NCBI GenBank assembly: GCA_038243585.1
Contig: JBBSQY010000008.1
Location: 1-64,000 of the forward strand
Reading direction: 5' to 3'
Length of the DNA stretch: 64,000 nt
From: Candidatus Sumerlaeales bacterium
GTDB lineage: Bacteria > Sumerlaeota > Sumerlaeia > Sumerlaeales > Sumerlaeaceae
A program made the position numbers. Numbering within the stretch: the first letter of the stretch is position 1; every line of letters begins with the position of its first letter. Of this stretch, positions 3,001 through 7,816 are shown piece by piece.

Positions 3001-6000
3001 AATCCAAACAGAAAGCAAAATCCGCCAATCAACCAAAACGCCCCCCCGGACGCCCCCGCAAATCCAGCCAGCCCACCTGAAAAAAGTAAGAGAGGGGGGA
3101 GTATTATTTAATTATCCAGTTCTTTGAAATCAAATCATTTACGCCGCAAAAAAAATACCGTCACCCCCCCCTGGAGCGTCCATCTTCTATGTTCCGCCCA
3201 CATACTGGACGGGGTATCCGGCGTTAGCCTCGGGGTCACCAACAACGGCGGGATAATCTGGTATAAACGGAATCGATAGGCTCTTAAGGGGGAGCGTGGC
3301 TCAGCCTGGGTTTAGGCCGGCAGGGTTACCGGCGCTTCCAGGGGGAGTAACTACAGCAGGCGCTTCGGTGCCTGGTTCGATTATCTCGAGCCCGTCTGGC
3401 AGTTCGGCCGTTGTTCCATCTGGATGAATCACAACGACGTCCCATTTTCCAACCAACGGCGCTTCGTTTAGGGTACGCATGATTGTCAGAGCGTTTCCGC
3501 CCTCTTCAATAATTTCCGGGAATGTGGTTTCTTCCTTGTTCCTGCGAAACTCGACTCTTGCCCCGGAAAGATTTTTGCCAGTAATCGTAATTGAGGTATC
3601 CTCATTCTGGGGTATCGTCGCCGGTTGAATGCTTATGCTTTCTGCCGGAGCGGAAACTTCAACCGCGGGGGCCACGGCTGGCGCTGAAGTCGCAGAGCCA
3701 GTGGTGGCTGCTTCCAGGACGGGTGTCGTTATCGTGATTTCTGAGTCTTCCGCTCTCGGGCTAGATGGGGTATTTGCCTGGAGATCCGTTGCTGGGGATT
3801 TTTCAGATTCTGAAGAGACTGGCAGGTCTGGTGCTGGTTGAACAGCAATCGACGGCGTCTCCTGGTCTTTGCCGGAGTCGTTAGAAGTGTTTTGAGTAAG
3901 CTCACCGTCAGGTGCGTTTGATGTTTTTGTGCTGGATTCTACTCCGCAGCCGCAAATGAGGATTATAAAACACAGACTTACAGCCATGCAGATATTTTTG
4001 ATACAAGGGGTTTCCATAGTTTTACTCTCCAAAGAACGACTCTACAAATAATACGATTTCATGATATAGCAATAATAAACAGGGTGAGGGACCCGTCTTA
4101 CGACAATGGCCTGAGCCCATTTGCTCTTTAAATACAATATATTATTCGCAATCTGAGCAAATGCGCGGACTCGTGCTTGACTAGGTCGTCCAGATGGCAT
4201 ATAAAAGAGTTGTAAAATGCAGACGCTACGAAAGGTTTAATTTCTTTCGCTCCCGCTGATCTCCCTGTTCCGGAAAGGAACTTTTTAGGATGTTTAGTTT
4301 TATTTTAGAGCGGGTAATGCTGAGGCAGCCAACTCTGTGCGTTGTTATTGCAGGGGTCGCTTCTCTGGGAAGCGCGGCACCTTACAGTTCCACAGGCAGC
4401 GGTAGCTCAACTATCGGAGCAGGCGGAAATTACGCTACTATATCAGCAGCCTGCGCGGCTGTGACGGCTGCGGGCTCGCGAGACGCCAGCGAATGGACAT
4501 TCCTAATAACAGGAAATGTGACCGAAACCGCTAACTCCTCTTTGATGTGTACTGTTAATCCTGCAGGCGGCATCACGTTTAGGCCCCAGAGCGGGAAGCA
4601 GGTTACTGTAACATGGCCGTTACTTGCTGATAGCGCAGGGATTAGCGGACGTATCGTTGTCGGCGGCTCTACCGCAACTGCAACAGTTAAGAAAACAGAC
4701 AATATCACCTTTGACGGCAGCAACACCCCTGGCGGCTCCACACGCGATATGTTTTTTGTAGGAGCAGCCGCCGAAACAACTTCTGGATATTTTGTTACAG
4801 TAGCTGGAAATAGCGATTCCTTCATAGCTCGTAATCTTTCAATTCAGGGATTAAGCACAGCAGCGAATGCGTCCTGTATCGCTTTCAGGCCTTCCTTTTC
4901 TGACACTGGTGCCAGCGGAAACTACTGTCCCGATAACTGGATAGTAGACAATTGTTTGCTCCAGCAGATATCGTCAGCCTCTGGACAGGGCATTAACGGC
5001 ACAGCTGTACGGGGAACAGTTCCTTCAGGAACTGCAATGAGCGGTTGGTCTATCACCAACAATACATTTGTCCATGGCTCCCGGGCAATTTTTCTAACCT
5101 CGGCTGGCGGCAATATATCCGGGAATACCTTCCGGCAAACTCTTGGGGCTGCTAACCAGGATAGCTGTATTTTACATAACAGCACAAACGGCGCAACCGG
5201 GTGGACATGGACCATTGATAAAAACGTTTTTGATGTTATAACCAGCCCAAACGTCAGCCCGGGTGATTTTGGTACGGCAGTCATGATTGTAGGCCCCGGT
5301 TCTGGGGCTGGTACTTACCATATTACAAACAATAGCATTGCCGGCTTTAACTTCACCGGAGCTACTTCTGTGGACCAGAATTATCAAGCCATTCGAGTTG
5401 GCGGCACCAGCTCTATGATTGTAAATATTGAGCACAATTCTATTAGCATGCCAAACACGCCCCGGGCGACTGGAGTAACGGCCGGGCGTGTTGCCGCGAT
5501 TTCACGCACTAATGCGACGGCAACTCCTGCTGTTTTAAGCGTAAAAAACAACATCATCCGCTTTTTACAAACAACTGGAAATCCTGCTGCTGTGTTTGCA
5601 GCATCCAGTCCAAACCTTACCATTGACGGAAACAATATTGTTACGGCCGGCTCTAATCATTTCGGGTCGATAGCAGGTGTCACTTATAATACCTTTCCGG
5701 CGTGGCAAGGTGCGGGGTACGACATTAATGGACAAAATATAGACCCAACCACTACAACTGGCGGAGCATGGGCATCTCCCAATCTAAACCAAATGGGTGA
5801 CCTCCACTTCCTTGACGCACCTACAAATTTGCTAAAATCCACTGTGGCTAACACATCTGCTAATTCTGCCAATGACATTGATGGCGAATCCCGCGGGGTT
5901 ACAGGTAATTACTATCCTGGATCTGATCAGCCTAATGCCTTTGCAATCTATTCCTGGGTAGGCGGCGCAACTGGAGACATGAGTGTTGCCTCAAATTGGT

Positions 6001-7816
6001 CAGACGGAGCTAATCCTAGGACAACACCAAAAGCGACGGACATTTTGCAGGTTAATTCCGGAGGCCCGGTTACCATTTTAGTTCGGGATCAGCACATTAG
6101 CGGCTTGCAGATCAGTAATGCAACCGCTTTGACTTTGCGCCAGTTTTATACAGCCTCTGCAATCAATCATCGTCTGGCTGTATTGGACGGGAACAATGGT
6201 CCTGCGGGAGATTTGGTAGTTGATCTCAACTCCTCAGTAACTTACACTGGCGGAACTCCTATCATAACCGAATTGACCTCTTCTGCCCCCAATGCCGCCA
6301 CGGGGGAAATTAACGGAGATATTCTATTTGCTTCCACTGCAGCAAGTGCAGGTCACAGAATATTTGTAAGGTCCCTTGCTGGACTTATATTTAGGTCTGG
6401 GGCATCATGCTCAATGGCTCCTTCCAGCACTGGAGGCGGGACGGGTTTCGGAGCAGTCGCAGATTCACCTGTTGGCTCAGTTAAATTTGAATCTGGTTCC
6501 ACATGGAACCAATCTGCCACGAAGGCAGGCGTGCGATCCGGCGGAACGGGATCGTCTCCGTTCTCTACGTCAGGCGGAGCCGGCATTGCCACCTTCGAAC
6601 CCGGCAGCAACTTTATAAATTGGGGAAGTACTGCAAGCGTCCTACTTGATGTAACTGGTCGCACATTTGGAAACTATGTGTGGCGCAGTGGCTTTAACGC
6701 AACGGATTCTGGAGCCATGGCGATGGTAATAACCGACACTTTGACTCTTGGTGCTTCCGGACTTGCCACAGCAGGAACACTTACTTTTGGTACAGGAACG
6801 TCAGCCACTGTTGCGGGTTTATTTATTGAAAGTGGCACCAACGTCGGCTCGTTTGTCGATAACGGAGTGGCGCCCGTTCCAAGTGACTTCACCTTCACCG
6901 GCAATATCGACATTAGCGCTAATCCAACAAACTTCACGCCTAATCACAGCGCCGATCGCCTTTATCGAATTGCTGGCACCACGACTCAGACCATTAATTT
7001 TTCTGACCTGCTCCTTGCGAAAATCGATATCGTAACATCAGGCGGCGACGTCAACATGACCGGCGGGTTGAGGGTTGGATCGGTGCTTAAAATCAACCTC
7101 TCAGCAGGAAACATACTTAATGGTGCAAATGTGCTGGAACTTGGTACAGGTGTTGGCAACGTTGGCACTTACACTCAGACCGCAGGGCATGTAGTTGGTC
7201 AGTTTAAGCGGTGGATGGGTCCGAATATTAGCGCTTGGCCTTTTCCGATTGGAACTGTCACGGCAGACCGTGCTGCAGTCATTGACTTTACCACTGCACC
7301 AACCGCAGGAGGCTCGCTTACGGCCAGCTTTATCGCCTCTGATCCGGGCGACAGCGGAATGCCTTTGTCAGACGACATTAACCTCACTACAGTTGCCAGC
7401 GATGGTTTCTGGACGGTGACTGCTGCGGATGGTTTGGCAGGAGGCACCTATACTGCATTGTTAAACGCTTCAGGGTTTGCTGATATCACGGACGCAAGCG
7501 GCCTGCGGATAGTAAAGCGTACGACTGCCGGACCCGGCGCTTGGACGATTGATGGAACTCCTGGAACGAATTCTGGCGCTGTTGTGGTTCGGACAGGCAT
7601 GAGCGGGTTCTCCGACTTCTCGGTTGCTGGTAACTCGCAGGTACCTGTTAGCCTATCAGGTTTCACCCTGGAGTAGCTTCTGCACTTAGTTTATAGTGGC
7701 GGTCTGCTTCTGGGCCGCCACATTTTTTAAAAGATGGGGGGTTGCAGCTGCAGCAAATTGGTTTTGCTATTGGGAGTGCGAAATACACCCTTTCGGGTCG
7801 TTGTGGCAATATCTAA

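Follow-up and report, generated by a model that had tools for sequence, protein, structure and literature searches.

A ten-residue C-terminal strand on exported bacterial proteins as the proposed signal of a sorting system with a split FN3-like acceptor

Exported proteins of a Candidatus Sumerlaeales bacterium (genome G000) and of bacteria from several phyla end in a conserved ten-residue tail, which we propose to be the signal of a three-part sorting system built on a split fibronectin type III (FN3)-like domain; on the evidence below, we regard this reading as fairly probable. One tagged protein is encoded in the window, the 64,000-nucleotide stretch of G000 that was analysed, and its C-terminus reads ...QVPVSLSGFTLE directly before the stop codon. 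The putative acceptor (contig C43) and the C25 peptidase of the linked clade (contig C49) are both encoded outside the window (Table 1), and acceptor, C25, and tailed genes are unlinked in this genome.

Table 1. Features of the tagged window protein and of its proposed partners in G000
Feature	Location	Strand	Basis or remark
Tagged cargo gene	4290..7676	+	1128 aa, exported; C-terminal region homologous to Bacteroidota T9SS cargo
Probable Sec signal peptide	4317..4376	+	Second Met to L-G-S-A, read by eye
Passenger C-terminal domain, aa 935-1118	7092..7643	+	Homology to Bacteroidota T9SS cargo
Tag P-V-S-L-S-G-F-T-L-E and stop	7644..7676	+	Putative free strand A of an FN3-like domain
Candidate acceptor, stand-alone exported domain lacking strand A	G000 C43:928-1464	+	HMM of the fused domain
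Linked-clade C25 protease	G000 C49:14751-17564	-	PF01364, tree

The C-terminal tail and its counterpart in Bacteroidota

An earlier note had described the tail on six unrelated exported proteins of G000. All six exist with the ends it gave, and its central claim of a sorting-type C-terminal tag on unrelated exported proteins is supported, with signal peptides judged by eye alone and an ambiguous start for C84:639-1160. G000 was scored with a position matrix built from 146 tails of other genomes. Among 5,856 ORF ends, five of these C-termini scored 20.4-23.5 bits, and none of 1,407,904 internal windows reached 20 bits with the same matrix; the tail is real. The sixth, PVNLGSYYSE on contig C29, is called degenerate because its score of 1.9 bits is level with background. 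The two tagged proteins on contig C84 are paralogues (45% identical), so the six represent five families. This contig had been called co-binned in the note; its tetranucleotide distance to the genome lies at the 1st percentile and its composition is thus not foreign.

Across Sumerlaeota, a DNA pattern including the stop codon yielded the 157 matches counted before, found in 24 of the 75 genomes and not in 28, with four matches for the reversed control instead of seven; a looser pattern gave 243 matches in 35 of 75 genomes (reversed control 10). The consensus is P-V-x-[LVM]-x-x-[FW]-x-[VIL]-[ED]-stop, with V, L, or I before the proline in its fuller form. The L-S core proposed earlier is too narrow, as position 5 is S in only 32% of 153 pattern-selected tails (M 24%, Q 17%, D 8%). 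Position -1 to the tail is V, L, I, or T and position -2 most often T (22%), A (14%), P (11%), S (10%), or G (7%), and no conserved cleavage motif could be found in the region upstream of the 153 tails. These tails end in E or D and carry no hydrophobic helix. With E values of up to 1 allowed, no Pfam or NCBIfam model matches more than one of 33 tails. In several phyla, proteins of unrelated fold share this ten-residue ending in the same place. The suggestion of a tag beyond Sumerlaeota is supported, its range being much wider than this phylum, and one G000 paralogue has no tail at all. Identical tails at contig ends of genome G013 were considered as cassettes and rejected, being the ends of paralogous cargo.

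The window protein itself has no match in Pfam or NCBIfam, nor to the C-terminal domain (CTD) models TIGR04183 and PF18962 of type IX secretion systems (T9SS). No RNA holder is listed for its gene, which carries no information on expression. Its residues 935-1118 are 31-48% identical to Bacteroidota T9SS cargo. Among 47 homologues of residues 935-1128, the tail position opens an FN3-like domain of ~100 aa with a PVEL strand in 34, and 36 contain the T9SS CTD family PF18962; in the Bacteroidota homologues, this fused FN3-like domain precedes the T9SS signal. An AlphaFold2 model of one fused protein places the tail-equivalent segment as the first strand (E563-572). By homology, the tail corresponds to strand A of this FN3-like domain.

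A candidate acceptor and its predicted complex with the tail

Although no receptor had been named in the earlier note, a candidate acceptor has now been found by means of the fused domain. An HMM of the fused domain has one significant match in G000, on C43 (E 1.1e-5), which begins at model position 11, and hhalign aligns acceptor and fused domain with 97.8% probability over positions 16-98 only. The fibronectin type III fold is a seven-stranded sandwich of strands A-G; the acceptor is missing strand A, and none of 84 distinct acceptor domains has a PV strand within the 22 aa upstream. The acceptor is FN3-like both in sequence (3mpc, E 1.3e-5) and in structure (2ic2, with a middling Z of 7.9, below 8, rmsd 3.4, 94 aligned). 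Foldseek returned no match at E up to 0.001, its weaker rows being FN3 domains, matches in the ESM Atlas are limited to unnamed clusters (0.93-0.97) and FN3 clusters (0.84-0.85), and neither Pfam nor NCBIfam has a match for the acceptor. A strict lipobox regular expression, which misses some seen by eye, matches 32 of the 84 acceptors, and many combine a lipobox with a long Pro/Ala/Glu linker; the G000 acceptor has no clear lipobox. A second acceptor form has a tail within 2 kb in 21 of the 32 rows examined.

The predicted complex of tail and acceptor scores 0.70 compared with 0.01 for the best of three controls, a value that was obtained with author-built alignments and may reflect general familiarity with FN3 folds; in calibration, the score mark was reached by 116 of 157 solved pairs vs. 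2 of 215 mismatched pairs. Between runs, agreement in contacts is 84% or higher, at a partner pLDDT of 51-54, and the interface pairs residues 25-34 of the tail segment with acceptor residues 72-84 and 146-156. Of this 34-aa segment, only the ten tag residues touch the acceptor, where they are predicted to fill the strand-A gap. Strand-addition docking is well supported by homology and modelling, and the tail very probably binds the acceptor in this manner.

Chaperone-usher pili rely on donor-strand complementation, whereby a beta-sandwich that lacks one strand receives it from another protein. Homology and the predicted complex suggest that here, too, a strand provided in trans completes an incomplete beta-sandwich. 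Unlike in chaperone-usher pili, the fold is FN3-like and the missing strand is the first; unrelated cargo proteins share the donor as their C-terminal tail, there are many donors per acceptor, and no usher, PapD-type chaperone, or pilin polymer was found among the annotated neighbours.

Linked C25 peptidases and co-occurrence across genomes

The C25 peptidases linked to acceptor and tails match PF01364 over its cut-off, retain the His-Cys dyad (GHG and [TS]C motifs), and have PorU as the first PDB match (6za2, E 6.8e-5). Seven of the clade score 160-229 bits against the PorU sortase model NF033707 (cut-off 420), and the PorU2 cut-off is not reached either. The linked C25s cluster with the G000 C49 enzyme in a quick tree (SH-aLRT 94, six outgroup rows only). 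According to PMC4560394, PorU has a sortase-associated Arg ~32 residues after the catalytic Cys that is absent in gingipains. By our reading, 54 of the 60 clade rows have Arg or Lys at Cys+32 to +35, four have none there, and two could not be read, vs. none of six outgroup rows with it; the position is one residue off by motif, and the residue is Lys in G000. The window's own C25 gene (21028-25782) was rejected as partner enzyme because it is not a member of the linked clade and has no such basic residue. Acceptor and C25 genes neighbour genes for GT-C transferases, Wzm/Wzt, glycosyl- and sulfotransferases, and Wbp-like amino-sugar genes (PMC7468200).

The linkage of C25 to acceptor and tails is seen in raw genome counts, in which related genomes are not independent. 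Of the 24 Sumerlaeota genomes with at least two tails, 23 encode the acceptor and 23 a short C25, and at least two tails occur in 1 of 40 acceptor-negative genomes. In other phyla, 43 of 46 tail-bearing genomes encode the acceptor and all 46 a C25, vs. neither in three genomes with noise matches. The two genes lie within 5 kb of each other in 25 of 43 cases and within 16 kb in 32, and are often adjacent. An even draw from the family of Dokdonella soli (n = 121) contained 26 genomes with tails, 30 with the acceptor, and 32 with the C25 (one each). The acceptor was found in 25 and the C25 in all 26 of the tail genomes, the C25 also in 30 of 30 acceptor genomes, and no true tail in the 89 genomes with neither. 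Cultured D. soli has seven tail matches, two acceptor-domain genes, and one C25 gene, and all three components occur together in Sumerlaeota, Acidobacteriota, and Gammaproteobacteria. Exceptions are G107 (14 tails, no acceptor match), G019 and G220 (tails without acceptor), G078 and G117 (weak acceptor matches only), and G061 (no C25 match with a single query); moreover, 12 Sumerlaeota and five D. soli-family genomes with an acceptor have zero or one tail pattern match.

Components of the T9SS were sought in tail-bearing genomes, among them G066, a single contig (96% complete), and G000 (90% complete). TIGR04183 has no match in G000, G066, G092, and G112 and two marginal matches in G077. SprA/Sov (PF14349) and PorV (PF19572) were found in none of four tail-bearing genomes, with clear matches in the positive control G243 (E 7.6e-156 and 1.2e-56, respectively). 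All five tail-bearing genomes examined for secretins have them, and in D. soli GspD scores above its cut-off.

Proposed mechanism, alternatives, and relation to known systems

In the proposed system, cargo would be exported by Sec and have at its end a free beta-strand of the form [VLI]-P-V-x-[LVM]-x-x-F-x-[VIL]-[ED]-COOH. The acceptor would be a small exported protein, often a lipoprotein on a flexible linker, that corresponds to an FN3-like domain minus strand A. Because the tail is predicted to complete its fold, one acceptor could take any of the 1 to ~30 cargo proteins of a genome. With the tail docked, the PorU-like C25 would probably cleave the linker immediately upstream of it. The enzyme may then attach the C-terminus so created to a surface glycan or glycolipid that bears an amino group, much as PorU couples cargo to A-LPS; the neighbouring sugar genes would presumably make this glycan or glycolipid. 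By analogy with PorU, we lean towards this combination of linker cleavage and transpeptidation. The outer membrane would probably be crossed by a secretin machine of the T2SS or T4P type, not by a T9SS.

The lipobox and long linker of many acceptors, the proximity of the second acceptor form to tails, and the missing cleavage motif would also suit a purely non-covalent tether, in which the tail docks in a membrane-anchored acceptor, the cargo stays uncut, and the C25 acts elsewhere, e.g. on the acceptor or a coat protein. We consider this unlikely, as the C25 accompanies tail and acceptor nearly without exception, in many cases as the adjacent gene, and usually a single acceptor gene serves many cargo proteins, which suits turnover. 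Alternatively, the acceptor could be a periplasmic chaperone that hands cargo to the secretin machine, with the C25 trimming the tail by hydrolysis and releasing the protein. The presence of secretins in all five genomes tested and the negative searches for SprA and PorV are in line with such an export pilot, but the annotated acceptor neighbours include sugar genes and no secretion genes, and the C25 clade mostly has a basic residue near that of PorU, making this option quite improbable. That the tail is a vestige of a truncated T9SS-type cargo, or a strand folding back on its own protein without a partner, is hardly credible: the homologues of the window protein are indeed T9SS cargo with the full domain, but these ten residues recur in the same place in proteins of unrelated fold from several phyla, one G000 paralogue is tail-less, and the complementary half exists as a conserved gene of its own.

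Just as little speaks for the PV tail being a variant of the Sumerlaeota DW tail (S-x-V-x-D-W-x-L-Y) read by the same machine, as the earlier note had considered. Both tags form short strands at the ends of exported proteins within a single genome, and one paralogue pair (C29/C71, 49% identical) carries a PV-like and a DW end, from which the tags had been called exchangeable. Because the C29 tail is degenerate, this pair is weak evidence for exchange. What it does show is modularity of the tails; a common reader does not follow from it. The DW tail differs in sequence (end W-x-[LIV]-[YF]) and distribution and is not tied to the acceptor or the short C25 clade. G062, G036, and G045 have 34, 16, and 16 DW matches (controls 8, 3, and 3) and no PV tail match, acceptor, or short C25, whereas D. 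soli, Wenzhouxiangella, and G077 have PV tails and DW matches at control level. This double dissociation, together with the homology of the PV tail alone to strand A of the acceptor domain, supports the note's distinction of the two tags.

The proposed sorting by strand and acceptor shares several features with T9SS attachment, including a C-terminal signal on Sec cargo, a C25 His-Cys peptidase with PorU as best PDB match, nearby amino-sugar and glycan genes, and a tail and acceptor that would stem from a domain within T9SS cargo. It differs in that the genomes tested yielded no SprA, PorV, or CTD family, and in that the C25s remain below the PorU cut-off. Tripartite C-terminal signals, composed of a motif, a transmembrane helix, and a basic tail, likewise mark many unrelated exported proteins and come with a co-distributed processing enzyme and linked polysaccharide genes. 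None of the 153 tails has this architecture; they lack the helix and basic end, terminate in Glu or Asp, and are associated with a C25 enzyme and a separate acceptor. LPXTG/sortase, PEP-CTERM/exosortase, and GlyGly-CTERM/rhombosortase are examples, summarised in PMC7468200 (section 20). T9SS attachment, as described in PMC4560394, PMC7468200, and PMC11969387, involves the PorU C25 sortase, the PorV shuttle, the cargo CTD, and A-LPS with a Wbp/Vim linking sugar; its signal is a folded CTD of 43-82 aa and its reader a beta-barrel shuttle, in contrast to the 10-11 residues and the putative split FN3-like reader found here. In the literature searched, which lacked most subscription papers, neither the tail nor the acceptor is described, and C25 sorting is not described for bacteria other than Bacteroidota.

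The recognition step lies outside every catalogued family tested; the chemistry of attachment would be of the PorU kind, should it be confirmed. Evenly poised, in our view, is the broader reading of a free-standing system that extends at least to Sumerlaeota, Acidobacteriota, Hydrogenedentota, and Gammaproteobacteria. Its whole signal would be the ten-residue strand, and a split FN3-like acceptor would present any cargo to a PorU-family transpeptidase, with cargo joined to a dedicated surface glycan without a T9SS. As part of the same reading, the fused Bacteroidota domain would be the intact counterpart of this module, and PorU-type attachment would be separable from type IX secretion. If correct, the model would also suggest a kinship for the unannotated PVEL domain of Bacteroidota cargo. 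The natural ten-residue tag and its ~90-residue binder might become a protein-engineering tool, and the sorting system would be open to direct study in cultured D. soli. If true, the tail would represent a new class of bacterial sorting signal, a single strand completing the fold of its partner with no need for a transmembrane helix or folded signal domain, which would give PorU-like C25 peptidases a role in bacteria without T9SS and explain why the tail recurs on exported proteins of Acidobacteriota, Dokdonella-type Gammaproteobacteria, and Sumerlaeota.

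Tailed proteins in the genome and beyond

Exported proteins of the genome studied here (G000) share a C-terminal tail of ten residues, the PV tail. The earlier note counted six such proteins, including the tagged cargo protein of the window. Across the 99 contigs, a strict motif matched five C-termini, and a looser motif brought in a sixth on contig C29. By a position matrix trained on 146 tails, all from genomes other than G000, the five scored 20.4–23.5 bits among 5,856 ORF ends, and 0 of 1,407,904 internal windows reached 20 bits; the count of six is upheld for these five but not for C29, whose tail scored a background-like 1.9 bits. 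Signal peptides were called by eye. The two tailed proteins on C84 are 45% identical to each other, and this contig, suspected of being co-binned, is not foreign to G000 in composition. The C29 protein, which ends PV-like, is 49% identical to a C71 protein ending in the DW tail (S-x-V-x-D-W-x-L-Y), a separate C-terminal tag of Sumerlaeota, and the C65 tailed protein has a 41% identical paralogue on C1 with neither tail.

The reported 157 matches over 75 Sumerlaeota genomes (pattern with stop) were recovered, but they were spread over 24 genomes and the reversed control gave 4, both fewer than claimed. Without the Ser/Thr constraint, 243 matches were found in 35 of the 75 genomes (reversed control 10). 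The reported occurrence beyond the phylum was confirmed by a GTDB scan for P-V-E-L-x-x-F-x-[VIM]-[ED]-stop, which yielded at least 123 loci, 80 of them named among the matches listed. By our own count, 104 of 125 matches listed close an open frame of at least 90 aa or one leaving the locus. Named hosts among these matches include Thermoanaerobaculia, Holophagae, Vicinamibacteria, Dokdonella (with the cultured Dokdonella soli), Wenzhouxiangella, Marinicellaceae, Hydrogenedentota, one deltaproteobacterium, and Sumerlaeota. The consensus of 153 pattern-selected tails is [VLI]-P-V-E-L-[SMQD]-x-F-x-[VI]-[ED], with no clear cleavage motif ahead of it, and the cargo proteins are mutually unrelated (subtilases, copper-binding, kelch, lamin-tail, BNR, and many of unknown kind). 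In the Sumerlaeota genome G013, the same tail DNA lies at several contig ends (C58, C71, C102, C107); it comes from near-identical ends of paralogous cargo genes, which caused the assembly to break. An Acidobacteriota genome with many PV tails also has another recurring tail, G-F-E-S-G-N-T-A-A-W-S; similar tails occur in Dokdonella-type bacteria.

A split FN3-like domain and its acceptor

Residues 935–1128 of the window protein, used as query, found 47 other proteins, 36 of them with the T9SS CTD family. In 34 of the 47, the tail position is the beginning of a domain of ~100 aa (L-P-V-E-L-x-x-F...), and one stops at the tail like the window protein; 12 escaped the regular expression for the PVEL strand, most of them having a variant strand. 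In an AlphaFold2 model of one fused protein, the tail segment is the domain's first strand (E563–572, local pLDDT ~82–91). The 34 homologues and this model together identify the tail as the freed strand A of an FN3-like domain.

No receptor had been identified in the earlier note; HMM and hhalign searches now provide a candidate acceptor, encoded on C43, with predicted binding. It is the sole significant G000 match to the fused-domain HMM, with an alignment beginning at model position 11, and hhalign of the fused domain against the acceptor (97.8% probability) covers positions 16–98 of 105 only. The acceptor model (pLDDT 85) matches FN3 domains by sequence (3mpc, E 1.3e-5) and by structure (2ic2, Z 7.9, rmsd 3.4, 94 aligned), and neither tail nor acceptor is covered by a Pfam or NCBIfam model. 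Among its homologues, which are small and exported, many carry a lipobox as well as a low-complexity linker. By a strict regular expression, 32 of the 84 distinct acceptor domains have a lipobox, and none has a PV strand upstream. The G000 acceptor has no clear lipobox, and four relatives within its family have the acceptor fused to a TPR lipoprotein. For a second, larger form, 32 of 37 secondary rows were examined, and in 21 of these a tail is no more than 2 kb away. At L061, L062, L071, L075, and L077 (Sumerlaeota families f3, f10, f11), a gene for an exported coiled-coil and cohesin-domain protein follows the acceptor; because several such genomes show no tail match, the acceptor may have another donor in these families.

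A predicted complex of acceptor residues 44–174 with the last 34 residues of the window protein scored 0.70 (runs 0.70, 0.74, 0.62), against 0.01 for the best of three controls. The score mark was met by 116/157 solved and 2/215 mismatched pairs, a benchmark that is only roughly valid here because our own alignments were the input. Contact agreement between runs was at least 84%, with a partner pLDDT of 51–54. Modelled contacts are limited to residues 25–34, i.e. the tag, which would run antiparallel along acceptor residues 72–84, with the tail Phe against 136, 148, 151, and 154 and the final Leu against 72, 134, 154, and 156. Since split-domain halves can pass through likeness to solved FN3 folds, the complex supports rather than shows binding; docking of the tail by strand addition is predicted and very probable. 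Asp is frequent at tail position 5 in families f9, f12, f13, and f15, and these tails (L063–L069) go with W-R-L-Q acceptors, where that of G000 has W-G-T-E. Tail position 5 faces these residues in the predicted complex, and the two may possibly co-vary.

Features of the window, acceptor examples, and related loci
Feature	Location	Strand	Description
Tagged cargo ORF	4290-7676	+	1128 aa; C-terminus Q-V-P-V-S-L-S-G-F-T-L-E-stop
Probable lipoprotein	3301-4032	-	One beta domain plus a long low-complexity linker; oriented divergently to tagged gene; no match to fused-domain HMM
PorU-like C25 peptidase	21028-25782	-	1584 aa; adjoins probable glycosyltransferase and membrane protein; outside acceptor-linked clade
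FG-GAP repeat protein	41257-42525	-	DW tail at end
Acceptor gene	G000 C43:928-1464	+	178 aa; fused-domain HMM E 1.1e-5
Second acceptor form	L232:6291-7691; L244:1866-3410; L245:5002-6597; L241:6877-8736		Exported, 460-530 aa; Ig-like (DUF1573-type) domains and C-terminal strand-less domain
Locus with degenerate tail	G020:C33 (L287:2181-6847)		Tail L-P-V-T-V-E-W-A-V-V-D, acceptor, and two-frame split C25 in one run
Other recurring tail	L371:1-903		G-F-E-S-G-N-T-A-A-W-S

Co-occurrence of tail, acceptor, and C25 peptidase

The acceptor was found (E <1e-20) in 35 of 75 Sumerlaeota genomes, including 23 of the 24 with at least two tail matches (the exception, G019, is 81% complete); these and the following are raw counts of genomes that are not independent of one another. 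Only 1 of 40 acceptor-negative genomes has at least two tails, and 12 genomes have the acceptor yet 0–1 tail matches. Several families split cleanly into genomes with both and with neither (f13, 4 vs 7; f15, 1 vs 10; f7, 1 vs 3; f16, 1 vs 6). A short PorU-like cysteine peptidase (C25; open frame < ~1,100 aa) is encoded in 23 of 24 tail-rich Sumerlaeota. For other phyla, 46 tail-bearing and 3 noise-hit genomes were selected from the 80 named loci: C25 is present in 46/46 and the acceptor in 43/46 (missed in G078, in G117, and in G107, where there are 14 tails), and neither occurs in the noise-hit genomes; C25 is also absent from 14 named controls. C25 and acceptor lie within 5 kb in at least 25 and within 16 kb in at least 32 of 43 genomes, among the matches listed.

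In the D. soli family (121 genomes drawn evenly, two previously chosen for their tails), the tail pattern matched in 27, or 26 after one ending in TGG was discarded. The acceptor is present in 30 genomes and C25, as one copy each, in 32, covering 25/26 and 26/26 tail genomes, respectively; all 30 acceptor genomes have C25, five genomes with both lack a tail match, and none of the 89 with neither has a true tail. Tailed genes adjoin or neighbour acceptor genes in Wenzhouxiangella, Hydrogenedentota, G116, G102, G021, G013, and G046. One Sumerlaeota genome (L290, G013:C12) and one Hydrogenedentota genome (L240, G087:C65) each have a compact module of three genes, encoding C25, the acceptor, and a tailed subtilase (S8); the two C25s are sisters in the C25 tree. 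The system at G020:C33 may be decaying, or else its split C25 may be an assembly error.

The suggestion that the PV tail is a DW variant does not hold: G062, G036, and G045 have DW tails in abundance, with neither a PV match nor an acceptor nor a short C25, and DW tails stay at control level in G011 and G069, as they do in D. soli, Wenzhouxiangella, and G077. SprA and PorV, both found in a Bacteroidota control, occur in none of four tail-bearing genomes, and the T9SS CTD family is absent or marginal in those searched.

Peptidase, glycan genes, and proposed mechanism

In a quick tree of 66 C25 domains, from which two spurious motif hits and rows <340 aa were excluded, 60 rows, including the G000 C49 copy, form the acceptor-linked clade (SH-aLRT 94), and both long G000 copies, one in the window, are among the six outside it. 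Linked-clade peptidases keep the His-Cys dyad and have PorU as top PDB match (6za2, E 6.8e-5), with scores under the PorU cut-off. PMC4560394 describes PorU as the proposed sortase, with cargo cleavage at X/(GSA)(VLI) and, 32 residues past its Cys, an Arg that is missing from gingipains. Judged by sequence register, an Arg or Lys appears near this place in 54 of 60 clade rows (4 without, 2 unreadable) and in 0/6 outgroup rows. PorU cleavage sites sit in a flexible linker and tolerate varied residues (PMC11969387). The DW tail begins [STA]-[ASDG]-[VA]-x-D, resembling both the PorU site (PMC4560394) and T-S-V-E-D at the beginning of the P0003 CTD; the window C25 and a 1681-aa copy on C5 are candidate DW-tail enzymes.

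GT-C transferases (PMT_2) occur near acceptor or C25 in D. soli, G090, G083, G088, G046, G060, and G065, and other neighbours include Wzm/Wzt, GT2/GT4, GDP-mannose dehydratase, sulfotransferases, and sulfatases. Sulfatases ending L-R-x-L-G-Y recur next to acceptor and C25 genes (L237, L239, L243). After C25 in G066, and in the same order in G055, come genes for a Gfo/Idh/MocA dehydrogenase, a sugar acetyltransferase, and a DegT aminotransferase, resembling by kind of gene the WbpB, WbpD, and WbpE that synthesise the linking sugar of T9SS (PMC7468200). In G000, the acceptor has neither C25 nor tailed genes linked to it. It precedes an NDP-sugar epimerase-family gene, a position that it holds in most of the family.

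Secretins are present in 5/5 tail-bearing genomes, and export would go through a secretin. Once the tail had docked, C25 would cut the linker and join the cargo to a surface glycan, a step that we consider somewhat probable. That the tail is a plain tether seems unlikely, and that it is an export pilot with trimming less likely still. Searches of the open-access literature found no description of the PV tail or acceptor. The tail is homologous to strand A, its acceptor is strand-less, and tail, acceptor, and C25 co-occur and are linked. The tag is thereby tied to a split-domain system, and fusion evidence, family-level counts, and a separation from the DW tail are added.
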